Positions 13,828 through 48,390 of a DNA stretch of 64,000 nucleotides are shown here, piece by piece; the first letter of the stretch is position 1, and each line of letters opens with the position of its first letter. A program made the translations under genes and the position numbers. The notes under the pieces were generated by a model. That model was not told the origin of the DNA and did no database searches. It saw nothing but the letters and a program-made list of their open reading frames with translations. The stretch comes from an uncultured Chloroflexia bacterium (GTDB lineage Bacteria > Chloroflexota > Anaerolineae > Anaerolineales > RBG-16-64-43): positions 14,201 to 78,200 of the forward strand of contig CAVRUI010000001.1 of the NCBI GenBank assembly GCA_963724345.1, written 5' to 3'.

Positions 13828-14517
13828 TCACCAGATTCCCGGCACAAGCCGCGCGGTATTCCGGCCGTAGGCTTCCCATTCCGCGCCGAACTCGTTTTTC
13901 AACAGCGCTTCCTCGTCGTGAATGCGCAGGAGCAGTATGGCGAGGATGACCGGCGCGGCGGCCAGGCCGATCCAGGACCGGAAGGCCAGGGAGAAACCGG
14001 CGGTGAGAAGAATAATTCCCAGATAGCGGGGATGGCGGATCCAACGGAACGGTCCGGACGTGATCAGGTGATGATCTTTTTGGATGGTCACTTCGGGGGA
14101 GTATTGTTTGCCGAGCGCCAGCCCCGACCAATAAATGAATCCATAGGCGGCGGCGCAGAGCACGGCGCCGATCCAGCGGAGGACGGCGCCTTCGGCGAGC
14201 GTCCCGATCCCGCGCCGGTCGAAAAAGGGGATCGCCAGCAGCGCGAGATACAGCCCGGTTACCAGCCCGATCCGGACGACGGTTTCCCGCCGGTTGAGTT
14301 TGGATTCATCGCCCTTGCCGCCGCGAATCCCTTCCGTCCCGGAAATCGCCTGGATGCCCACGGCCGCCGCGAACAATCCGACCGCTGCGGCATACCCCGT
14401 TCTGGGCGCGAGGGAGAAGAACCCGCCCAAATCCGCGAGCCCCCATCCGAGGAGCGGCAGTCCGAGATAGATCAGCACTGTGGCAACAAAGAATAAAAAA
14501 GCGCGGAGATATTTCAT
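13828..14517 (-). CDS. ICMT/PEMT family protein
   Basis: HHLITSGPFRWIRHPRYLG and EEALL...FGAEWEAY...RLVPGIW. Confidence 0.9.
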   Translation of the reverse strand: MKYLRAFLFFVATVLIYLGLPLLGWGLADLGGFFSLAPRTGYAAAVGLFAAAVGIQAISGTEGIRGGKGDESKLNRRETVVRIGLVTGLYLALLAIPFFDRRGIGTLAEGAVLRWIGAVLCAAAYGFIYWSGLALGKQYSPEVTIQKDHHLITSGPFRWIRHPRYLGIILLTAGFSLAFRSWIGLAAAPVILAILLLRIHDEEALLKNEFGAEWEAYGRNTARLVPGIW

Positions 14518-37847: not shown

Positions 37848-40235
37848 CTACTTCAATCCGCCCGGTTTGTATTCGCAGCGCAGGAGGGTAACGTTCCAGA
37901 ACACCTCACTGCGGACGATCGCCCCTCCGGCTTTATCGAGCGCGACGAACTGGTACTGCAGCCAGGATTCGCCGAAGGTGCGCACGTCGGGGATGTTCTC
38001 CGCCCACAGGGTGATTTCATACAGGTTGTTCCCGACCGGGGTCATGGAGATTCCGCTGCTCCAGGCGCCGAGCCGTCCGCTGCTTTGTTCCTTCAGCCGG
38101 GCGTAGAACAGAACGTTCGCCACGCCCTCGGCGCTGGAAAGGCCGATCTGGAAGGTCACCTCGCGCGGGCCGCAGTCGCCGGCGGAGTTGGGCCCGTAGA
38201 AGTAGAGGGTCTCGGTGGAGACTTTGGGCTTTCCGAACGAGATAAGGGCGGGGGTCGGGGTGTCCGTGGGCGCGACATCGGGCATCATCGGCAGGAATTG
38301 GAAATCCCAGCCGAAGTTGATATCCGCGCGCACTTCGCCGCCGCCAAGCACGATCTCGGTCGTGGCGGGTCCGCCTCCGCGGATCGGATAGGTCCAGCCG
38401 CCGGGAATAAGCGCCAGGTCGTTGCCGTCGTGGAGCGCATCGACCGAGACGCAGTAGGTGCCCGCCGCGAGGGCGGGGAAGGAATACCCGCCATCCGGGC
38501 CGGTGACGGCCGTCATCAGGTCGCTCCCCGTGGCGCAGGAGCCTGCTTTCAGGCGGAGCGTGACGCCCGGGATGCCGGGTTCGCCGGGTTCCAGAATGCC
38601 GTTGGCATCGATGAAAAGCCCGTCGCCGTCGGGATCGCTGCATCCCGGAGGCGGCGTGGGCGGGTATCCGTGTTCCGGGACGGCGCACAGGTCGTGCCAG
38701 ACTTTCCCGCTGATCATGGCGTCGCCGCCGCCGGAGGCTGTGCGCTCCACCGCGCCGCGGTCGCAGCCTGCGCCCTGCGGACGGATTACGCCGTGTTGGT
38801 CAGTTCCGGCGCAGAGGTCGGGGTTGGCCGAGTCGATCGCCGGGCTTGCGGCTTGGAGATCGAATGCCGGCGACCAAGTTCCCACCGGAGGCGGGGGGGC
38901 CAGCATCGGATCGGTGCTGGAAAGATCGGTGCCCTCCGAGAGGGCGCAGGTCGCGCCGTCGTCGATGTTGTGGCCGATCGAATCAATCGGCACCCCGGCG
39001 CAGTTACCGCCCGAATTGCCGGCCAGGATCGTATTGCGGATGGTCTTTTCGCCGCCGCCGCTGTTGTGGATTCCCTGGTTATTATTCCCGGCGACCGTCA
39101 CGAACATCAGCCGGATGTTCCCGCCGTCGTTGAAGATGCCGCCGCCACCGGAGCCGCCCGTGTTGGCGCCGACGGTTGTGTTGTCGAGGAGCAAGCCGCC
39201 GCTGTCGGCATTGAAAGCGCCGCCGCCCTCATCTTCATAGGCCGTGTTGTACACGATCGAACTCTCGTAGAAGTGGGCCATCCCCAGGTTGTAAATCCCG
39301 CCCCCGGTCCGGCCCTCGTTGTTGCTCAGCATGACATCCCGTGCGATGAGGGTGACGTAACCGTTGAGGATCCCGCCTCCGGCGTTGATGCTGTGGTTGT
39401 TCTCGACGGTGGAGCTGGTGAGTTCGAGGTCGCCGTTGTTGTGAATGCCGCCCCCTTCGTTCCCCGCGCTGTTGCCCTCGACCTCGGTGTTGATGATGGT
39501 CGATTGGGTGCCGGGGCCGAGCCACATGCCTCCGCCCGGGCCAAAGGCTTCATTATCGGCGACGATCGTATGGGAGAGCATCAAGGTCGGCGCGACGCCC
39601 GCGACATCTTCGGTTGCGATGCCGCCGCCGACGAAGGCGTGGTTGCCGCGGATTTCCGACATATAGACGCCGAGTGCGCTGCCGCCGGCGGCGTAGATCG
39701 CGCCCCCGTCCACTTCGTGGTCGCCATACCAGGTGCTGATGTTGTTTTGGAAGATCGTTTCGTTGACGTTAAGTGTCGCGTTGATGACCCGGATTCCGGA
39801 TCCGTTGTATTCATGGCCGTTCTGGATCACCAAGCCGCTGAGGCTGGCACTGACGCCGGGCAGGACGTCGAAGATCCGGTCCGCGGCGTTGCCGTCGATG
39901 ACCGGTTTCCCGGTTCCCATAATCGTGACGTTGCCGGTGAGATCCAGGTCGCCGGTCGCGGCGGCATCTTCATCGGACCCCGCCCGCGTCAGGGTGTAGG
40001 TTCCGGCGGGGATTTGGATGGTCTGGGTGCCGGCGCAGATGTTGGCCCGGATCACCGCCTCGCGCAGGGAACAATCCGCGCCGGAGCACACGCCGTCGTT
40101 GGTGTCGGCGGTTTTGGTTACCAGGATATCCGCATCGCACGGCACCGGGGTTCCGCCGCAGCTGACCAGGAGGGCGAACAGGAAGATCGCGCATCCTGGA
40201 ACATACCGGGCGATGGAAGGCTTATTGGGTCTCAT
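37848..40235 (-). CDS. CSLREA-domain lipoprotein with beta-helix, choice-of-anchor Q and SdrD B-like domains
   Basis: LVSC lipobox; DCSLREAV; GGGI repeats; SPAIDS...DQHG..RP; ISGKVWHD...GEPGIPGV. Confidence 0.88.
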   Translation of the reverse strand: MRPNKPSIARYVPGCAIFLFALLVSCGGTPVPCDADILVTKTADTNDGVCSGADCSLREAVIRANICAGTQTIQIPAGTYTLTRAGSDEDAAATGDLDLTGNVTIMGTGKPVIDGNAADRIFDVLPGVSASLSGLVIQNGHEYNGSGIRVINATLNVNETIFQNNISTWYGDHEVDGGAIYAAGGSALGVYMSEIRGNHAFVGGGIATEDVAGVAPTLMLSHTIVADNEAFGPGGGMWLGPGTQSTIINTEVEGNSAGNEGGGIHNNGDLELTSSTVENNHSINAGGGILNGYVTLIARDVMLSNNEGRTGGGIYNLGMAHFYESSIVYNTAYEDEGGGAFNADSGGLLLDNTTVGANTGGSGGGGIFNDGGNIRLMFVTVAGNNNQGIHNSGGGEKTIRNTILAGNSGGNCAGVPIDSIGHNIDDGATCALSEGTDLSSTDPMLAPPPPVGTWSPAFDLQAASPAIDSANPDLCAGTDQHGVIRPQGAGCDRGAVERTASGGGDAMISGKVWHDLCAVPEHGYPPTPPPGCSDPDGDGLFIDANGILEPGEPGIPGVTLRLKAGSCATGSDLMTAVTGPDGGYSFPALAAGTYCVSVDALHDGNDLALIPGGWTYPIRGGGPATTEIVLGGGEVRADINFGWDFQFLPMMPDVAPTDTPTPALISFGKPKVSTETLYFYGPNSAGDCGPREVTFQIGLSSAEGVANVLFYARLKEQSSGRLGAWSSGISMTPVGNNLYEITLWAENIPDVRTFGESWLQYQFVALDKAGGAIVRSEVFWNVTLLRCEYKPGGLK

Positions 40236-40497
40236 GGTTTTTCTCCTTTATGCCGCGGATGGAATGAAAGAATGGTACTTAGAACGGTTGGACGATGCAA
40301 ACGGCGTTCACTTCACGCATTCTCTCCCGGACGGAAAATGGGACTCTCTGAAAAAAGGTGTCATGCTGAGCGCCTGCCCTCGCGAAGCGGGGGAAGCGAA
40401 GCATCTGTTTCAGCGTGTCCAGGCCCTTCGCTGCGCTCAGGGTGACATTTTCAGAGGTTTCAAAAGTATAATTTTCACAAGTTTCAGTGTACTCCGG

Positions 40498-41304
40498 ATG
40501 CCGGGGAAAAATTCCAAAAAACCTCCGGAATACCTATACGAGGGATATTTGCCGAATAAACTGGACGCGCTGGAGAAGCGGATCGTCTCCTGCCGCCGCT
40601 GCCCGCGGCTGGTGGAGTGGCGGGAGCGGATGGGCAGGGAGAAACGGCGCGCTTACCGCGGGGAAACCTATTGGGCGAAGCCGGTCCCCGGATTCGGCGA
40701 TCCACGGGCGCGGGTACTCGCGGTGGGGCTTGCGCCGGGCGCGCACGGTTCGAACCGGACGGGGCGGATGTTCACCGGCGACGCCTCCGGCGATTTTCTG
40801 TACCCCGCTCTTCACCGGGCCGGGTTCGCCGACCGGCCGGCGGCCATTGCGCGCGGCGACGGCCTCGCGTTGGAGGGCCTGTTCCTCTCGGCTGTGTGCC
40901 GCTGCGCCCCGCCGGACAACAAGCCGACGGCGGAGGAGATCGCGAATTGCCTGCCGTACCTGGCCGGGGAAATCCGGTTGCTTCCGGATTTGCGCGTGCT
41001 GGCTGCGCTGGGGAAGATCGCTTACGACGCGCTGGTCCGCTTGCTGAAGGCGGGTGAATTGGGGATCCAACCGGCGGTTCTGCCGGAGAGCATTCCACCG
41101 TTTGGGCACGGCGTGCATTGGCCGTTCGTCACCGCGGAGGGCGGGCGGATATGGATGGCGGCTTCGTATCATCCCAGCCGGCAGAATACCCAGACCGGCC
41201 GGCTGACGAGGGCGATGTTCGACCGCTTCTGGCGTTTGGTGACGGAATTGGCGTCTTCGTCCACGAAGGAACACGAAGGAAGATCCGAAGAACACGAAGA
41301 ATAA
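40498..41304 (+). CDS. Uracil-DNA glycosylase family 5 (UdgB-like, 4Fe-4S)
   Basis: CRRCPRL, GLAPGAHGSNRTGRMFTGD, YHPSRQNT; start uncertain. Confidence 0.9.
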   Translation: MPGKNSKKPPEYLYEGYLPNKLDALEKRIVSCRRCPRLVEWRERMGREKRRAYRGETYWAKPVPGFGDPRARVLAVGLAPGAHGSNRTGRMFTGDASGDFLYPALHRAGFADRPAAIARGDGLALEGLFLSAVCRCAPPDNKPTAEEIANCLPYLAGEIRLLPDLRVLAALGKIAYDALVRLLKAGELGIQPAVLPESIPPFGHGVHWPFVTAEGGRIWMAASYHPSRQNTQTGRLTRAMFDRFWRLVTELASSSTKEHEGRSEEHEE

Positions 41305-41364: not shown

Positions 41365-41437
41365 GTAGAGTGGGTTGACGCACCGCCGATCACTTTATAA
41401 ATGCTCGATTTATCAATGGCGCGTCAACCCACCCTAC
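41365..41437. repeat. GTAG-type REP doublet (inverted)
   Basis: gtagagtgggttgacgc ... gcgtcaacccaccctac. Confidence 0.75.
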
Positions 41438-41456
41438 AAGGCAGGCGCGCAGGCAA

Positions 41457-41578
41457 GTCATCCCGGCGCGATCGGTTGGTTCGTCATCCCGGCGTGATCG
41501 GTTGGTTCGTCATCCCGGCGTGATCGGTTGGTTCGTCATCCCGGCGTGATCGGTTGGTTCGTCATCCCGGCGTGATCG
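41457..41578. repeat. 26-bp tandem repeat, about 4.7 copies
   Basis: gtcatcccggcgtgatcggttggttc at 41457, 41483, 41509, 41535 and 41561; no spacers. Confidence 0.92.
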
Positions 41579-41786
41579 CAGCCGGGATCCACGACATGCA
41601 CTCTATAAAAATATTATTCTGCTGGATGCCCCTTCGTTCACCCCCGCTCCGCAATCATCCCTGCTCATGGAAAAAGTTCGAGCAGGGATGCTCCCCCCTT
41701 CGCGAACCCATCGCACCGGGAAATCACCGGCGCTAATCGCTCCGGGGGGCAAGCGCGGGGCAGGCGCCGGGCATGACGATCCCATC

Positions 41787-44558
41787 TCATTCCATTATCG
41801 ATAAAAACACCGGCACGATCTGCGGGTCGAAATGCTTCCCGGATTGGGTCAGCAGGTAATCGCGCGCCTGGTCCTTGGTCCACGCCTGGCGGTACGGGCG
41901 GTCGGATGTGGTTGCGTCCCAAACGTCCACGATCGCGAAGACCCGCGCCGCGAGCGGAATTTGGTCGCCCTTCAAGCCGCGCGGATAGCCCGAGCCGTCC
42001 CACTTTTCATGGTGGCAATAGGGGATGTCGAGGGAATGCTTCAGGTAGATGATCGGCGAAAGCATCTCGTAGGCATAGAGCGGGTGGCGGCGCATGACGT
42101 CCCATTCCTCGCGCGAAAGGGCGTCGCGTTTGAGGAGGATGCTGTCGGGGATCCCCATTTTTCCCATGTCGTGCAGCAGCGCGCCGCGGCGGATGTGGAC
42201 CATCTGGCTTTCATCCATCCCCATCGCGCGCGCCAGGCTTTCGGTCATCTCGGTGACGCGCTCGGTATGCCCTTCCGTGCCCTCGTCCCGCAGGTCGAGC
42301 GCGCGCGACCAGCCTTCGATGGTGGTGTCGTAGGCCAGGTTCAGCTCGGCGTTGGAGTGCTGCAGCTCGTCGAACAGGGAAGCGTTGTCGATCGCGATCG
42401 CGGCCTGGACGGTGAGGGATTCCAGGAAATCGAACCAGTCGGCATCCGCCGTGAGCGCGGTCCGGAAGAACACCTCGAGCACTCCCTTCACCTGGCCCTT
42501 GACGATCAGGGGAGCCGCGCAATAGGACTTGAAGCGTTCGGACGGGAACTTCGGCGAGCGCGAAAGGCTGCCCACATCCTGGTCCAGGTTTGGGACGAAG
42601 ATCAGCCGGCGCTCGTGGGCCGCCTGGCCGGCGTATCCCTCCCCCAGCCGGAGGTGGGTGTGGTGCAGGGCATCCGAGTGGAACCCCTTCCCGGCCACGA
42701 ATTCCAACAACGTGGTCTTCGGGTTGAGAAGCAGGACGTCCACCGCATCCACGTTCGAACGGCGCGAGACCTGGTCCAGGAGGATTTCCAGCGTGAAGTG
42801 CAAATCCAGGCTGGAGCTGATGGTGATGTCGATATCCCGCAGGGTTTGCAGACGCTCCAAGCGGCTTTGCGTTTCCGCGTACAGGCGCAGGTTCTCCAGC
42901 ATCGGCGCGAGCTGGCTGCCGAGCGTGCGCAGGAGAAGAACGTCGTCGTGGGGGTAGAAATCGTCCGGATCGCGCCGTCCGAACAGCCACACCCCGCTGG
43001 TCTTCCCGCCGGTCTGGAGCGCGACGGCCAGCCGGACCCAGGACCAAAGGTCGGCGGCGACGCGGTCGGGCGGCCGGTACTGGCCGGCGCTCTGAATCAG
43101 CGTTTCCATTTCGCCGAGTTCCACCAGCCGGTCGGTCAGGGTGAGCCCATCCACGTAAAACAGAGAGTATCCGTTTTCCATCTTCCGATACAAAGCCAAC
43201 TCGCGGATCAAGAGGCTCGGGGTCACGTCGCGGCTCAGGAGCCGGATGAGCAGCGCGGGTTCGAAGGCCGCCGGCAGCTGGAGCGCGAAATCGCGGACGA
43301 TCTCCTGCGGATTGTGGCGGGCCCCGTAGGCCATCGTATCGAACCAGAGCTGGAAACGCCCGCGCAGGCCCGGGGCGGCGATCAGGAAGATCAGCGTCAC
43401 GGCCAGGCTGAACGCCAGCGATTCATCCGCCAGGTGGAGGTATTGGCTGGCGACGGAAAAGATAAGGATGATTGCCAGGCTGTAGAGCAGAATGAATGTA
43501 TACAAGCTCAACGCGCGGTTGGCGCGCAATTCGAACTCCCCCAGGCTGCGTTTGTAGATCGCGTAAAAGTAGAAAAACGGAAGCAGCGGAAGGGCCATGT
43601 AGGTGGCCAGCAGCGCCGGTGTGGACAGCGAAATTAATTTTGTGAAGAGGGGGACGGTTACATAGAACAGACTCGGCAGGAACGCCAATCCGATTCCGAG
43701 GAACATCAAACGCAGGGCAAGCCGTTCCGTCGCGGAAAGACGGGTAAGAAGGCGGTAGGCCAACAGCCCCAGGCTGCCAAGGATGGCGATCGCCAAGCCC
43801 AAATAAAATACCTGACGGGGCAGGACATGGAACAGCTCCAGCAGGGAAAGAACAACACCGGCAAAATAGAGAATCAACAGATACATCCGCTGCCGGGGCC
43901 GAAAGATCGGATTGGGGATCTCCAAATGCAGGTGGATGTACAGAGGAGCAATAAGCCAGGTCGCCACATGGATAATATAAGAGGAGAAATTGAGAATCGA
44001 TATGGATAAGCCGACGGCCAGGTATACCGCGGTGGCGTAGTTAAAAACAACCAGAAGAAACCAGCGCCGGTTCCGGGGACGGATGAGGATCAGCACGGCC
44101 GTCCCGGCCAGCCAAAATGGGATATAGAACAGCATTGGAATAAAGCTTTTTAACCGGTCGGAAAGGGCCGGGCTGACAAGCGTCCACTGGATTATCTGCG
44201 GGTTTCCGTTGCGGAGGATGGAGACCTCTATCGTGTCGCCGGGTTGAAGCCCGGAAAAGGGGACGCGGTCGTTATTATTAAGATAATCCTCATAGCGGAT
44301 ATCCCCAATGGCTGTTATTTGATCTCCCGCGTTGAGTTTATCCACATCCGCCGCGCACCACTCCGGCTGGTTGCTGCTGTTGCTCAAGCAATTTGCAAGA
44401 CCAAGAATTGTCCAATTGCTGTCGTATTCGATTCCGGAATAGGGCGCGATGTACGTTCCCGCGATCCCGTAAAAAAGACAGATCAGCAGGGTTACGAAGG
44501 AAATCAGGAACAAAGGCCAATCGGCGGCCTGCCGAAGGCCGGTCTTGATTTTTTCCAT
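41787..44558 (-). CDS. ComP-like membrane sensor (TM-PDZ-multi-TM-GAF-GAF) fused to an HD-GYP phosphodiesterase
   Basis: PDZ-like LNAGDQITAIG...LQPGDTIEVSILRNG; about 9 TMs; GAF motifs; HTERV, LLHDMGK, HHEKWDGSGYP, DVWDA..SDRPYR. Confidence 0.85.
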   Translation of the reverse strand: MEKIKTGLRQAADWPLFLISFVTLLICLFYGIAGTYIAPYSGIEYDSNWTILGLANCLSNSSNQPEWCAADVDKLNAGDQITAIGDIRYEDYLNNNDRVPFSGLQPGDTIEVSILRNGNPQIIQWTLVSPALSDRLKSFIPMLFYIPFWLAGTAVLILIRPRNRRWFLLVVFNYATAVYLAVGLSISILNFSSYIIHVATWLIAPLYIHLHLEIPNPIFRPRQRMYLLILYFAGVVLSLLELFHVLPRQVFYLGLAIAILGSLGLLAYRLLTRLSATERLALRLMFLGIGLAFLPSLFYVTVPLFTKLISLSTPALLATYMALPLLPFFYFYAIYKRSLGEFELRANRALSLYTFILLYSLAIILIFSVASQYLHLADESLAFSLAVTLIFLIAAPGLRGRFQLWFDTMAYGARHNPQEIVRDFALQLPAAFEPALLIRLLSRDVTPSLLIRELALYRKMENGYSLFYVDGLTLTDRLVELGEMETLIQSAGQYRPPDRVAADLWSWVRLAVALQTGGKTSGVWLFGRRDPDDFYPHDDVLLLRTLGSQLAPMLENLRLYAETQSRLERLQTLRDIDITISSSLDLHFTLEILLDQVSRRSNVDAVDVLLLNPKTTLLEFVAGKGFHSDALHHTHLRLGEGYAGQAAHERRLIFVPNLDQDVGSLSRSPKFPSERFKSYCAAPLIVKGQVKGVLEVFFRTALTADADWFDFLESLTVQAAIAIDNASLFDELQHSNAELNLAYDTTIEGWSRALDLRDEGTEGHTERVTEMTESLARAMGMDESQMVHIRRGALLHDMGKMGIPDSILLKRDALSREEWDVMRRHPLYAYEMLSPIIYLKHSLDIPYCHHEKWDGSGYPRGLKGDQIPLAARVFAIVDVWDATTSDRPYRQAWTKDQARDYLLTQSGKHFDPQIVPVFLSIME

Positions 44559-44559
44559 C

Positions 44560-45510
44560 TCAGTGTATATCGATCTCGGGCGGCACCGCGATCCCTAGTT
44601 TTTTCAAGAGGTGAATCAGCGGTACGATGTATTGGTCGATCACGGAGCGCAGTGAATCCGGATCAGCCAGCGGTGTTTCCTTAAGAATTTTCTTGGCCGC
44701 CAGGTAACTTTGGCTGAGATGGTACATGGCATAACTGACGGCTCCGGATTTGATCAGGATCTGCTGCGCGGACCGCAAGGCCTCCGGGTCGTCGACCTGG
44801 GAACGCAGTACTTTGAACCGCTCGCGGTCCGGGTGATCGGCCGTCAGGGCGTACAGGAACAGCAGGTTGTTTCGGCCCTGTTTCCAATCCGGATTGGCCG
44901 GGGTTTCCATGCCATCCTGAATGTCGTCGTGGATCTGAATTGCGTCGCCGGTAATGGACCCCAATTGGCGGAGCCGTTCGACGGTTTTTGGATTAGCCTT
45001 GCCGAGGATCGCCCCGATTTGCATCGCCGTTCCGAAGTACGACGAACTTTTGGCGTGAGTCACCTTCCAGTAATTCTCCTCGCCGGTCAGGTTGCGCGAA
45101 TCCAGATCCTGGCCGTATGCCATGGTGAGCGCCATCTGCGCCAGGCAATCCATCACCGCCGCCCGGCGCCCGGCATCCACGGGGGTGTTGGCGATGACGC
45201 GGAAGGCGATCGATTGAAACGCGAAGGAGAAATTGGCGGCCATAGCGTCGCCGATCTTGAGGTGCTCCCCGCGCGGATCCTGGTCGAGCATATCGTCCAC
45301 GAGGAGGATACTGAGAATCATGCATAAAATTGCGGCCGAACCGCCTGCCACCACCGATTCGTCGCCACCCACCGCCCGGCAGGCGCGCAACGGCCATTCC
45401 CAAACCTGGTGCGGGCGGGCCACCTGCCGTTCGAAAATGGCTAATATCGCCGGCCAATCGGCCACTTCCGGCAGGCTCATAACCTGTCTTTTTACATCTT
45501 CAATATCCAT
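44560..45510 (-). CDS. Class I isoprenoid-synthase-fold protein, ComQ-like putative Trp-peptide prenyltransferase
   Basis: LLVDDMLD, GQDLD, KSS, QIHDDIQD, DWKQGRNNL; lacks the GGKRxRP and DDxxD..RRG IPP-binding motifs; GAGGGAGG RBS. Confidence 0.72.
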   Translation of the reverse strand: MDIEDVKRQVMSLPEVADWPAILAIFERQVARPHQVWEWPLRACRAVGGDESVVAGGSAAILCMILSILLVDDMLDQDPRGEHLKIGDAMAANFSFAFQSIAFRVIANTPVDAGRRAAVMDCLAQMALTMAYGQDLDSRNLTGEENYWKVTHAKSSSYFGTAMQIGAILGKANPKTVERLRQLGSITGDAIQIHDDIQDGMETPANPDWKQGRNNLLFLYALTADHPDRERFKVLRSQVDDPEALRSAQQILIKSGAVSYAMYHLSQSYLAAKKILKETPLADPDSLRSVIDQYIVPLIHLLKKLGIAVPPEIDIH

Positions 45511-45588
45511 GGAATTCCCTCCCTCATAATTATGTGGAAATCCGGTAATTTAGCAACAGGTTGTTCTTTCTCCGGTTTGGAAAAACAT

Positions 45589-45616
45589 CGTAGCGCGGCG
45601 AGCCGTCCGCGCTACG
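45589..45616 (-). terminator. GTAG-type hairpin with U-tract between the peptide gene and the ComQ-like gene
   Basis: cgtagcgcgg-N8-ccgcgctacg followed on the minus strand by atgttttt. Confidence 0.55.
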
Positions 45617-45723
45617 AGAAATCCTACCCTGATACCCGGGAAATCAGGGCAAATAGTGCCACCCATTCCCTGCGATCGACCGGTTTTCCTCCGGATGCTT
45701 GAATGTGATCTGCGAGGCCGGCC

Positions 45724-45867
45724 TTAACCCCATTTACCCCAGCCTGACAGGCTGGTGGCTTTCAACAGATCCTCGGGCTCCTCGATCGCCGTGAGGTCGG
45801 ACAAAGCTGCTATCAATTCACTTTTCTCTTCGGAATGCAAAAGCACGTTGAACTTTTCTATGGACAT
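45724..45867 (-). CDS. 47-aa ComX-like precursor peptide (not in the supplied ORF track)
   Basis: GAGGAGGG RBS 5 nt before ATG; MSIEKFNVLLHSEEKSELIAALSDLTAIEEPEDLLKATSLSGWGKWG*; Trp at -2 and -5. Confidence 0.75.
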   Translation of the reverse strand: MSIEKFNVLLHSEEKSELIAALSDLTAIEEPEDLLKATSLSGWGKWG

Positions 45868-45970
45868 GCGAACCCTCCTCTATGGGCTATGGACGCTTTC
45901 CTCTTTGGGTCTTGCGGTGGACCGCGGGCTGGATGAGCATGGGACCCGGCTCGATCACCATGCCACATTA

Positions 45971-46013
45971 ATTATATGTAAATTGGAGAGAGAAAACCAT
46001 CGACTTTCGATGG
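45971..46013 (-). promoter_or_regulatory. Putative promoter of the peptide gene: TATAAT -10 plus an upstream palindrome
   Basis: TATAAT at 45976-45971; weak -35; CCATCGA-N3-TCGATGG at 45997-46013. Confidence 0.5.
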
Positions 46014-46124
46014 AAGGTAGTCATTTTCAGACCGGCTCGTGCGGGTAATCAGGACGATCGGCCGCTCCGAATTCGAATCGGGCTGTTTCTCAGGATTACA
46101 GGTGAGGATTGGCGGAAGCGGGGA

Positions 46125-46878
46125 TCAGATCTGCCCGGAATAAACGGACGCCAATATGTCGCGCGACCGTTCCAGCGGGCGGTTATCGAGCGGAGTTACC
46201 CGGTAACCGAGCGATTCCAGAAACGCAAGGCATTCCATATGGACCTTGCCGGAGTGGGTGGAGAGGAAAATCGGCGGATGGCTCGCGGCCAGCATCCGGC
46301 GCGCGCCCTGCAGCGCCAGGAATTCCGCCCCTTCGATGTCGATTTTGAGCAGATCCGGCGCCGGCAGGCGCCCCGCATCGATCCAATCGTCGAGCGCGAT
46401 GGATTTCACCTCCAGCGAGCCGCTTTCGCCGATCCGCCCCTTGGATGTGCTGGAATCCTCTTCGAAGCGGACCGTACCGCTGCGGTCGGCGACCGCCGCG
46501 TCGACCACGGTCACGTTCCCGATCCGGTTGAGGGCGAGGTGCCGCCGGAGAAACCCCAGGTTGCGGGGCAGCGGCTCGAACACGAACACGCGGCCGCCGC
46601 GGCCCGGCCCGGACGGCGGAGATCAGGCTGTAGTAGCCGACGTTCCCGCCCAGGTCGAACACCACGCCGCCGGAAGGGACAGCTTCCGCGAACCGGACGC
46701 ATTTTTCCATTTCGTAGCTGCCCAGCCAGTATCCGTGGTTCCCGGATCCCGCGATCCATTTCTTCCCGCGCAGGGGGCCCTGCAGGATGGGCAGTACCGC
46801 CCGCCCGGGAATCAACCGCAGCGGGAGGCGCAGAATTTTTCCGAAAAACGAAGTGTTGGAAATTGAGGTCCAGTTCAT
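46125..46878 (-). CDS. FkbM family methyltransferase (one +1 frameshift near 46595)
   Basis: FDLGGNVGYYS in the upstream frame; FEP..N and LLKIDIEGAE in the downstream frame. Confidence 0.85.
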
Positions 46879-46979
46879 GTCCACTCAGATTGACGAAAAA
46901 TCTTTGGACAGGATTTGACAGGATTTTCAGGATAAAAAATGAAAAAATCATGTCGATCCTGCAAGATCCAGCCTATTCT

Positions 46980-47606
46980 CTACCAGCGCATCAGGGCATT
47001 GATACCCAGCCGCCGGCTTTTCTGCACATACAGTCCGACGTACGCCAGGTCGAAGAACAGGATTGCCCAGGCGAAGAACACCGTGAGCTGTGATTCCGGC
47101 AGATACACAAACACCAGAATCGAGGGGCACAACGTGCCCAGCATCTTCGCCAGCCCGATGTAGAGGGACTGACCGGCCAGATCCCTGCGGTCCAAAAGCA
47201 TGCGGATGAACAGGATCGACATCAGGAGATTTTGCCCGAAGGCGGTGTAGTAGCCCGCATAATTATCGAACTCGCGCGTGACCAGCAACACGGTCAGGAA
47301 CGCGACGATGAGTATGGAGAGAAAAGCGCCGAAGAAAAATACGGCGGTCACTTCGGACGGGCGGCGCGCGCTTTCGTAGCGCAGGTATTGGATGACGATG
47401 ACCGAATCCAGGGCGAACCAGGCGATGTTGATGATCAGCTGAATCCCGCCGGCCGGATGGATGAAGGAAAAGATGAATTCCCAGGAGATGTTGAGCGTCA
47501 GGGCCGCCATCGGCATGCCGCAGGCTTTATCCTGGTATCCGCGTTTGATGAGGAGCAGGTAGGTGATCAGCCAGAAGACGCCGGATGCGATCCCAAGCCA
47601 CTGCAT
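46980..47606 (-). CDS. Transmembrane terpene cyclase, Pyr4/PaxB/XiaH/DmtA-like
   Basis: ~7 TMs; W..TY....RG..D..CGMP..AL.LNISWEF; W..LD; SL.IG.AK.LGT; late FFDL Asp; GGAGG RBS. Confidence 0.78.
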   Translation of the reverse strand: MQWLGIASGVFWLITYLLLIKRGYQDKACGMPMAALTLNISWEFIFSFIHPAGGIQLIINIAWFALDSVIVIQYLRYESARRPSEVTAVFFFGAFLSILIVAFLTVLLVTREFDNYAGYYTAFGQNLLMSILFIRMLLDRRDLAGQSLYIGLAKMLGTLCPSILVFVYLPESQLTVFFAWAILFFDLAYVGLYVQKSRRLGINALMRW

Positions 47607-47621
47607 GACGACCCTCCTTCG

Positions 47622-48390
47622 TTACGCCGCATCGCGCCGGGGCGGCACGAGAAATTCCAGCAGGAGCGATACTATATCACGGCCCCCGGGCGGCAAAGGA
47701 TCGCGCGGGTATACCCGGCGGAAAGATTCGAGGCGCTGGATGACATCCCGCAGGGGCACCGGGCGCCCGGCATCGGCCGAAGCCCGGCGGACGAACAACG
47801 CTCCCTGTGACCGGTGGCACGCCATTGCGGCCAGTTTGCATTCGAACGCGGGAGTGATATCCACCACGAAATCCGCCGGATCGTTGAGGTTGGCTGAGCG
47901 CTTGCGCGGATGATCGGCATGATCCGCGCCGAATGAATAGAGCGCGGGAACGCCGGAGAGGCGCGCGGTTTCGAGGCAGGCCTGATGCGCCAGCAAGTGG
48001 CCGGGATGCCCGTATTCGCCGCTCGAGCCGTGGGTGATCACCGCGTCGCGGTTTCGCGGCGGCGAAGAAGGCTTCCATTTGCGGGACGACTTCCCCGGCC
48101 GATCCGGCGAAGGCGTACAGCGCGTCCTCGGGGCCCACGTCCGGATCCCGGAACCCGAGAAAATCGACCGTCGCGCATCCGAGCGCGCGCCCGGCGCACC
48201 GCAGTTCGTCGGACCGTATGGCTCCAAGCCCGGCGCGCGTGGCAAACCTCAGATCGCCCGCCTCGCCGCCCTCGCCGCGCGTGCAGCACAGGATCCCGAC
48301 CTCCGCCCCGCGCCGGGCAAGCAGCGCGAGTGTTCCGCCGGCAAAAACCGATTCATCGTCCGGATGTGCGGTGACGCAGAGGATTTTCAA
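47622..48390 (-). CDS. PIG-L/LmbE family deacetylase (one +1 frameshift near 48050)
   Basis: AHPDDE, TRGEGGE, GEYGHPGH, CHRSQ. Confidence 0.85.

Follow-up and report, generated by a model that had tools for sequence, protein, structure and literature searches.

A candidate ComX/ComQ-like prenylated tryptophan peptide signal in uncultured Chloroflexota, probably sensed by an HD-GYP-linked receptor

What does a reading frame of only 47 codons encode when it lies directly ahead of a gene for a protein with the isoprenyl diphosphate synthase (IPPS) fold? The question is raised by a locus of an uncultured Chloroflexia bacterium placed by GTDB in the Anaerolineales (Anaerolineae; RBG-16-64-43). The window, namely the whole stretch of DNA analysed here, comprises 64,000 nucleotides (positions 14,201 to 78,200 of contig CAVRUI010000001.1, assembly GCA_963724345.1), and carries on its minus strand a module of three genes in the order precursor peptide, ComQ-like enzyme and membrane sensor (Table 1). 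The small frame is a real, conserved gene under selection, and we consider it probable that its product is a prenylated tryptophan peptide signal of the ComX/ComQ kind, sensed in these uncultured Chloroflexota by an HD-GYP-linked receptor.

The peptide, MSIEKFNVLLHSEEKSELIAALSDLTAIEEPEDLLKATSLSGWGKWG, ends in SGWGKWG. A preliminary description of this DNA, made from its letters alone, had proposed such a frame with a strong ribosome-binding site, an acidic N-terminal part and tryptophans second and fifth from the C-terminus, and all four points stand. The core of the Shine-Dalgarno sequence, AGAGGAG, is unchanged in 6/6 sequences of an alignment of the intergenic DNA (the window and five close relatives), which is variable apart from a few blocks; nine acidic residues (D/E) are counted against four basic ones (K); and the two tryptophans are W46 and W43. 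Taken alone, the open reading frame (ORF) is no more than chance would provide, because the same 613-bp intergenic stretch wholly contains six further ORFs of 31-97 amino acids; we judge it to be a gene because its conservation, not its length, exceeds chance. The peptide lacks an export signal and matches no Pfam (E<=0.01) or NCBIfam model, and no paralogue was found elsewhere in its own genome (3.1 Mb, 3 contigs).

Conservation was examined in 94 related loci (designated by L numbers), 14 from species-representative genomes and 80 from a metagenome scan. The former encode relatives of the downstream enzyme with 44-94% identity and come mostly from Anaerolineales or Chloroflexota metagenome-assembled genomes (MAGs). 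Thirteen of these 14 loci carry an ORF of 47-56 amino acids directly 5' of the enzyme gene and on the same strand, the exception being L008, for which only 277 bp of upstream sequence is available; the window peptide and its 13 relatives have in common a leader pattern and an invariant W-x-x-W. A C-terminal regular expression (W..W followed by 0 to 6 residues) was found in the upstream plus-strand frames of 40 of 77 loci and in 3 of 800 opposite-strand control frames. As a family criterion this strict expression was rejected, since it missed 37 of the 77 loci, where a hidden Markov model (HMM) of the leader recovers the same family with longer tails. The leader HMM finds a same-strand precursor-like ORF beside the ComQ-like gene in 80 of the 94 loci, down to 39% enzyme identity, while no opposite-strand control frame scores better than E 3.9; 13 of the 14 misses have less than 300 bp of upstream sequence. 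The small-ORF search beside ComQ-like genes that the preliminary description had recommended thus returned a homologous ORF, and a WxxW precursor was likewise present on the enzyme's strand in 5/5 other in-family genomes of a Chloroflexota sample described below. None was found at the two generic-IPPS loci examined (0/2).

Selection acts on the leader. Between the window and its closest relative, L001, the 38 leader codons differ by 10 synonymous and no non-synonymous changes, and the nine core codons by two synonymous and five non-synonymous changes. Across the six pairs among the window and L001-L003, the dN/dS ratio is 0-0.08 for the leader and ~0.06-0.2 for the precursor overall; for most pairs involving L005, saturation of the synonymous sites precluded an estimate. 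The leader codons are under strong purifying selection. At the protein level, only F6, L22, W43 and W46 are invariant in 30/30 aligned distinct short-tailed peptides, so that both tryptophans are conserved; the preliminary description had expected a conserved terminal Trp.

Altogether, 100 precursor-like ORFs occur in the 94 loci; 80 lie upstream of the enzyme gene and 20 downstream, and 18 loci have two copies and one has three. Among the 91 distinct peptides, 85 display WxxW, three WxW, two a single Trp at position -2 and one WxxxW; 35 peptides continue after WxxW for 0-6 residues and 50 for 8-23. A distant clade with 39-45% enzyme identity (L037, L044, L047, L052-L054, L058, L062, L064, L071, L074, L077, L090-L092 and others) has two or three precursor genes per locus, located on both sides of the enzyme gene and encoding 8-23 residues after WxxW, and most of its sensors are hybrid kinases that include a receiver domain. 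Five other loci (L020 and L022; L057, L060 and L094) combine the family leader with either a single Trp at -2 (..SWF, ..TWS) or WxW spacing (AAWAWRG/F, LAWGWN). These natural variants could tell which Trp is essential, and the two sub-clade peptides that keep a single Trp at -2 hint that it is the C-proximal one.

The enzyme encoded next to the precursor has retained the two Asp-rich motifs of genuine synthases and lost a third motif. Its first aspartate-rich motif (FARM; D72-D73-x-x-D76) and its second, DDIQD (D195-D196-I-Q-D199), have all three Asp invariant in an alignment of nine family members, which also have GQxLD and DWKxxRNN in common. The genome's own canonical synthase, used as alignment partner, displays GKRIRP, DDIQDGDAVRRG, GKT and FQIQDD. 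In the ComQ-like enzyme, V-WEWP, which follows the pattern W-E-x-P, replaces GKRIRP, with loss of K/R/R, and P-RG replaces RRG, with loss of the first R. These lost basic residues, K/R/R of the GKRxRP motif and the initial R of RRG, serve isopentenyl diphosphate (IPP) binding in chain-elongating enzymes, and their loss makes chain elongation unlikely here; the enzyme may no longer be built for IPP condensation. No NCBIfam synthase cut-off is reached (best IdsA, 77 bits against a cut-off of 468); of the features of chain-elongating synthases the two Asp motifs are present and the IPP motif and a curated equivalog score are absent. A sequence search of the PDB gave ordinary synthases as best matches (nonaprenyl diphosphate synthase 9imq, 4.5e-15), with chains 9v4g/9v4j of the indole prenyltransferase Ord1 at E 1.3e-6, and singled out no peptide prenyltransferase. 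Where homologues of the enzyme carry a public name, it is 'geranylgeranyl pyrophosphate synthase' or 'polyprenyl synthetase family protein', and the family is invisible to annotation-based surveys because of the first of these labels.

Structure prediction brings the two products together. The predicted complex of peptide and enzyme reached an ipSAE of 0.84, against 0.01 for the best of three controls; 58 of 80 solved complexes attain this mark, as do 2 of 110 mismatched pairs, counts that are only rough here because alignments made for the analysis were used. The runs had at least 86% of contacts in common and a partner pLDDT of at least 77. Leader residues 3, 6, 18-19 and 22-28 are predicted to touch enzyme residues 220 and 253-263, the invariant F6 and L22 lying against residues 259-263, and peptide residues 31-46, which include both Trp, would sit at the interface with enzyme residues 191-203, the stretch containing D195. 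The model, which bears on binding rather than on catalysis, supports the view that the peptide binds the enzyme. Recall of a training structure is an unlikely source of the score because no ComQ-type enzyme-peptide complex has been solved so far, according to the portions seen of a recent preprint (bioRxiv 10.64898/2026.08.29.745113). The conserved leader, the varying last residues, the IPPS-fold neighbour devoid of the IPP motif and the predicted binding together lend support to the earlier suggestion of a pheromone or of a precursor of a peptide made on ribosomes and modified after translation (RiPP).

The start codon of the third gene lies 1 nt past the stop of the enzyme gene. The hydrophobicity profile of its product, the sensor, gives ~9-10 hydrophobic segments, the first at residues 16-34 and about eight others between a loop of ~105 residues and residue 398; a GAF and an HD-GYP domain, predicted to be cytoplasmic, come next. 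The HD-GYP motifs are intact (HD at residue 796, HHEKWDGSGYP around 857), which by domain content makes the output part a member of the HD-GYP family of cyclic di-GMP (c-di-GMP) phosphodiesterases. The outer loop (residues ~35-139) carries a conserved Cys pair and a GDQ-x-x-x-IG pattern. A profile of 27 such loops searched against the PDB gave as top matches the PDZ domain of DegP/DegQ (0.007), Nas2 (0.0075) and an RseP-like protease (0.055), and the 46 rows at E<=10 were mostly PDZ proteins, eight being antibody or nanobody chains. Among the Atlas neighbours of the sensor N-domain, in clusters that are themselves unnamed, PDZ families occur in 10-61% of members.

In 66 of the 94 loci the enzyme gene has a linked homologue of the sensor N-domain (residues 1-520), which lies upstream on the opposite strand in seven of them. 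Among the 28 loci where none was linked, 21 have less than 600 bp of downstream sequence and seven have 654-1514 bp; the latter belong to a clade in which extra precursor genes put 650-1800 bp between the enzyme and sensor genes. The input domain is shared and the output varies: among 32 complete linked sensors, a set in which certain proteins occur twice because two collections contained them, kinases account for 22 (10 being hybrids that also have a receiver domain) and GAF + HD-GYP proteins, that of the window among them, for 10. Seventy database homologues of the N-domain comprise 36 HD-GYP proteins, 31 kinases (18 HisKA, 6 HisKA_3 and 7 with HATPase only) and three other or truncated forms; L008 encodes a NarL-type regulator next to its kinase. 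The window's own genome holds, at seven places on contig C3, seven other GAF + HD-GYP paralogues without the sensor N-domain, 48-56% identical to the C-terminal part, an expanded HD-GYP family for a 3.1-Mb genome. These paralogues are a likely origin of the exchanged output domain.

Peptide, enzyme and sensor input also seem to change together. The flanks of L001 are 77-92% identical to those of the window (YbjN 88%, Pyr4 78%, FkbM 87-92%), with 94% identity for the enzyme and 91% for the peptide. The flanks of L021 are as close (79-95%; YbjN 88%, Pyr4 81%, FkbM 82-95%), yet its enzyme is only 59% and its peptide 38% identical; L005 has more distant flanks (61-86%), yet an enzyme with 84% identity. 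For L001, L002, L003, L005 and L006, identity is 84, 81, 78, 64 and 48% in the N-terminal half of the sensor and 95, 93, 94, 88 and 83% in its C-terminal half. In the ComQXPA polymorphism of Bacillus, peptide, enzyme and sensor N-terminal half diverge together as the flanks stay similar, and the present pattern is suggestive of such pherotypes, with peptide, enzyme and sensor input domain diverging jointly relative to the flanks.

The enzyme family itself is well bounded. A profile of it, run over 401 Chloroflexota genomes, scored 335-536 bits in six genomes, the window's own included, and at most 93 bits in every other; besides its own, five of 400 sampled genomes are thus in-family (335-510 bits). 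The overall tally of 167/401 at E<=1e-15 includes ordinary synthases and four genomes flagged as unpublished, none of them in-family. Since the scores fall into two groups, no intermediate relative was found in this sample, in which the inclusion of Sphaerobacter is not established. Among 5.8 billion proteins searched, clusters with 50% or greater identity to the enzyme numbered at least 120; the enzyme is common in metagenomes. One locus, L013, lies on a 117-kb contig assigned to a Patescibacteria-group MAG, yet has a Chloroflexota-type module and a peptide few residues away from that of L014, which suggests a binning or labelling problem.

We therefore propose how the module might work, as a conditional sequence of steps. 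The precursor gene would have a promoter and a terminator to itself. Its product would dock on the adjacent IPPS-fold enzyme by the conserved acidic leader, through F6 and L22, and this would bring the W-x-x-W core at the C-terminus to the Asp-rich active site. There, a prenyl diphosphate would donate its prenyl group to the indole of a Trp, most likely W46, the penultimate residue. The leader would then be removed and the lipidated C-terminal peptide would leave the cell. The PDZ fold typically grips peptide C-termini, and outside the cell the co-transcribed membrane sensor would perceive the peptide, plausibly via its PDZ-like outer loop. Because the sensor output is GAF + HD-GYP in the window's clade, the signal would alter c-di-GMP hydrolysis directly, without phosphorylation of a response regulator. 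The locus would accordingly function like ComX-ComQ-ComP while differing in peptide family, pseudo-SARM (the altered second aspartate-rich motif of ComQ), gene order and receptor output.

Several observations weigh against this proposal, in which we infer that the peptide is prenylated, processed, exported and received, as well as the direction in which c-di-GMP would be affected. No protease or exporter gene is conserved with the module in the loci compared. The Pfam model for ComX, PF05952, matches neither the window peptide (E<=0.01) nor any of 30 homologues (E<=1); a search of the whole own genome with it gave no match at E<=10, and control genomes likewise gave no locus. The enzyme has DDxxD where ComQ has the pseudo-SARM NDxxx, an intact second motif is a trait of chain-elongating synthases, and an N-to-D change in the second motif lowered ComQ activity by ~90%, as stated in the parts consulted of the preprint (bioRxiv 10.64898/2026.08.29.745113). 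The Trp pair is not always followed closely by a free C-terminus, because in distant clades 8-23 residues come after WxxW, and L084 revealed no precursor to the leader HMM despite 723 bp of upstream sequence. The PDZ-like assignment of the outer loop is marginal, Pfam PDZ_2 giving E 0.0057 and 17.3 bits, below its cut-off of 27. Finally, the contrast between the two halves of the sensor is partly explained by the generally faster evolution of membrane domains compared with catalytic ones.

The alternative that survives best, although we hold it to be unlikely, is a prenylated RiPP natural product with another role, antimicrobial or membrane-active for instance, with a sensor that is not the peptide's receptor. 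The same precursor-plus-enzyme evidence fits it equally, and the two or three precursors per locus and long C-terminal tails of the distant clades resemble multi-precursor RiPP clusters. Yet the loci compared have no transporter, protease or immunity gene conserved with the module, and the only other conserved partner is the membrane sensor, whose absences fall mostly at contig ends and whose gene lies 1 nt from that of the enzyme. The discrete divergence of peptide, enzyme and sensor N-domain amid similar flanks is moreover the pattern expected of matched signal-receptor sets.

A further notch down in probability comes an unmodified peptide serving as an intracellular regulatory subunit of the IPPS-like protein or of the sensor, with an enzyme that makes or binds a prenyl diphosphate for some other purpose. 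The enzyme does keep both Asp-rich motifs of genuine synthases, the complex prediction indicates binding only, and the peptide is without an export signal. However, the known small subunits of heteromeric synthases are much longer than a 47-residue peptide, the loss of the IPP-binding residues makes chain elongation unlikely, and the predicted interface includes both the peptide stretch with the two Trp and the D195 motif region of the enzyme. The two Trp are also the only invariant residues of the variable C-terminal part, and Trp is the residue described as modified by ComQ, PalQ and StheQ (PMC10853753; bioRxiv 10.64898/2026.08.29.745113). A chance reading frame in a regulatory intergenic region, such as the 5' leader RNA of the enzyme operon, is highly improbable: the six other ORFs and the conserved non-coding blocks of the region would suit it, but the synonymous bias of the codon changes, the same-strand HMM matches and the invariant Shine-Dalgarno sequence oppose it.

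How does the proposed signalling module compare with known systems? ComQ, ComX, ComP, StheQ and StheX were compared through their published descriptions. Three precedents are closest, one of them ComQXPA of Bacillus subtilis, with the ComX pheromone, the ComQ prenyltransferase, the ComP kinase and the ComA regulator. Both systems have a short precursor whose leader is conserved and whose Trp-bearing core varies, an adjacent FARM-bearing IPPS-fold enzyme, an adjacent multi-pass membrane sensor, and no dedicated protease or exporter. They differ in gene order (X-Q-sensor here, Q-X-P-A there), in the peptide, which lies outside Pfam ComX and has two invariant Trp (W-x-x-W) instead of a single one, in the second motif (DDxxD versus NDxxx), and in the sensor, which has a PDZ-like outer loop, a GAF + HD-GYP output and no ComA or adjacent regulator gene, in place of a HisKA_3 kinase with a NarL-type regulator. 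A signal that ends in c-di-GMP hydrolysis by an HD-GYP protein is familiar from the Rpf/DSF system of Xanthomonas, where the sensor kinase RpfC acts on the HD-GYP regulator RpfG; in that system a fatty acid is the signal and HD-GYP belongs to a response regulator of its own, which the kinase phosphorylates, whereas here sensor and HD-GYP form one polypeptide and the signal is presumed to be a peptide.

ComX-type prenylated peptide signalling was long considered to be confined to Firmicutes. ComQ-like systems were extended beyond this phylum in August 2026 with StheQ/StheX of Sphaerobacter thermophilus, reported in one preprint as a single enzyme-peptide pair from a cultured Chloroflexota species, without a receptor (bioRxiv 10.64898/2026.08.29.745113). 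From what the excerpts of that preprint relate, StheQ is likewise a Chloroflexota ComQ-like peptide Trp prenyltransferase with an adjacent small Trp-containing ORF; StheX is farnesylated at the Trp second from the C-terminus, the position of W46 here; and a Gln stands three residues before the second motif in both enzymes (Q212 in StheQ, Q192 here). In contrast, StheX has 69 amino acids, is encoded downstream of stheQ and bears WW at -3/-2, and StheQ has the pseudo-SARM N215-D216-x-x-D219, the NDxxx form that replaces the second Asp motif in ComQ and StheQ alike (also PMC10853753). As far as these excerpts go, no receptor is discussed and the term 'histidine kinase' is absent. The family described here appears to be separate and is sharply delimited in the genome sample.

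Paenibacillus alvei provides another three-gene cluster, PalQ/PalX/PalP, in which a sensor kinase accompanies a precursor and a Trp C3-prenyltransferase of the isoprene synthase superfamily, and which came to light through an AlphaFold2 model of enzyme and peptide that puts the C-terminal Trp of PalX in the active site (PMC10853753, in the sections consulted), evidence of a type that the present complex prediction shares. By the same account, the leader of PalX is of the NHLP type and its Trp stands strictly at the C-terminus, as opposed to two Trp followed by one residue here; PalQ, which used to carry the annotation of a terpene synthase, groups separately from both ComQ and the FPP-synthase-like subfamily, whereas the present enzyme is a clear PF00348 member. 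The StheQ preprint also names Ord1, an indole prenyltransferase of all-alpha-helical structure (PDB 9V4J and related entries), which likewise uses the IPPS fold for indole prenylation; its substrate is a small-molecule indole and not a peptide, and its match to our enzyme is weaker than that of ordinary synthases. A 2022 survey mentions, in this respect, only that the ComP-ComA kinase-regulator pair occurs in Chloroflexi (PMC8895600). Our literature search found no published ComQ work for Anaerolineae and no published peptide-signal receptor fused to HD-GYP.

Should all parts hold jointly, which we advance only as a tentative and rather doubtful combination, this would be the first peptide pheromone with a receptor fused to an HD-GYP phosphodiesterase, converting a quorum signal into a second messenger within one protein. 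A PDZ-like domain would capture the lipidated W-x-x-W C-terminus, possibly with both Trp prenylated; pherotypes would exist in uncultured Anaerolineales; and the enzyme would be an IPPS recruited separately from ComQ and StheQ, with its second Asp motif kept. A defined substrate motif (WxxW) together with an intact second Asp motif would allow a test of how IPPS enzymes became peptide prenyltransferases, and the naturally occurring receptors that join one input domain to a kinase in some cases and to HD-GYP in others offer a ready comparison for the coupling of peptide signals to c-di-GMP. The module would also give a first handle on cell-cell signalling in Anaerolineales, a group abundant in sediments and wastewater sludge and hard to culture.

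Table 1. Features of the module and its surroundings, in window coordinates
Feature	Position	Strand	Remarks
Precursor peptide gene, 47 aa	45867..45724	minus	ATG 45867..45865; stop TAA 45726..45724; read from sequence
Precursor subdivision: leader residues ~1-38, variable core 39-47 with W43 and W46		minus	From alignments and codon comparison
Shine-Dalgarno sequence GAGGAGGG	45880..45873	minus	5 nt 5' of precursor ATG; read directly
ACATATAATTAA block (TATAAT 45976..45971)	45968..45979	minus	Invariant in 6/6 sequences; ~100 nt 5' of ATG
Terminator-like hairpin and T-run, between precursor and enzyme genes	45578..45617	minus	11-bp stem with 8 G-C pairs; conserved block 45617..45588
Promoter-like TTGCTA-16-CATAAT, 5' of ComQ-like gene	45529..45556	minus	Both hexamers conserved in the six-sequence alignment
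ComQ-like IPPS-fold enzyme, 316 aa	45510..44560	minus	Pfam PF00348, E 7.1e-20
Membrane sensor, 923 aa	44558..41787	minus	Pfam HD_5 (PF13487) 3.8e-40; GAF_2 2.2e-14
FkbM-type methyltransferase, split over two overlapping frames	46125..46884	minus	N-terminal 90 aa in 46183..46884; C-terminal part in 46125..46589
Pyr4-like transmembrane terpene cyclase	46980..47606	minus	PF25129, E 8.9e-28; 1.1 kb upstream of precursor
PIG-L-type deacetylase, apparently frameshifted	47622..48390	minus	First ~85 residues of 47677..48390 match PF02585; rest in 47622..48245
Uracil-DNA glycosylase (UDG) ORF	40018..41304	plus	UDG domain at residues 224-406
Repeat translating ...RHPGVI(A/L)AGIHD...	~41375..41736	plus	Two or three copies just downstream of sensor gene

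The intergenic signals suggest that the precursor forms its own transcription unit ahead of an enzyme-sensor operon. A comparison of sampled sequence words for window positions 44400-46200 brought up no RNA run and 11 DNA data sets containing just 5-11% of the words, a result without bearing on expression. The ACATATAATTAA block is likely the -10 element of a promoter belonging to the precursor; a consensus promoter scan left it unflagged because no good -35 element is present. The hairpin, whose stem is invariant in 6/6 sequences with the sole change falling in the loop, would act as a terminator or attenuator, and TTGCTA-16-CATAAT is a putative promoter for the ComQ-like gene.

Further upstream, the Pyr4-like terpene cyclase and the FkbM methyltransferase were considered as core peptide-tailoring parts and rejected, since they are syntenic only in the window's clade. 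Among loci reaching far enough upstream, this clade comprises L001-L007, L016, L021 and L055, all with a syntenic FkbM gene and all except L005 with the Pyr4-like gene, which is syntenic down to 59% enzyme identity (L007/L021); neither gene occurs in 13 further loci for which 2 kb or more of upstream sequence is available. The upstream YbjN and PIG-L genes and the downstream UDG gene are syntenic in the same clade wherever the contig reaches, and only there. Because their synteny is limited to this clade, we treat YbjN, PIG-L, Pyr4-like, FkbM and UDG as neighbourhood rather than core. Bacterial Pyr4-like cyclases are described as little explored in the part consulted of a 2026 paper (PMC13307353). 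Either enzyme may have a clade-specific role, the cyclase for example in cyclising the prenyl chain of the peptide.

Some of these neighbours appear broken. The FkbM gene of L001 has both parts in a single frame, and the split in the window reflects either a frameshift or an assembly indel; with the PIG-L gene, two broken genes lie within 2 kb, which suggests assembly indel errors in this 3-contig, 77.7% complete genome. The UDG ORF begins with ~220 residues of odd composition before its domain, and its annotated start has probably been set too far upstream, unless the ORF contains a further indel. The RHPGVI(A/L)AGIHD repeat recurs downstream of the canonical polyprenyl synthase gene, on contig C3 near 1,086,600-1,087,100, and is possibly a dispersed intergenic repeat.

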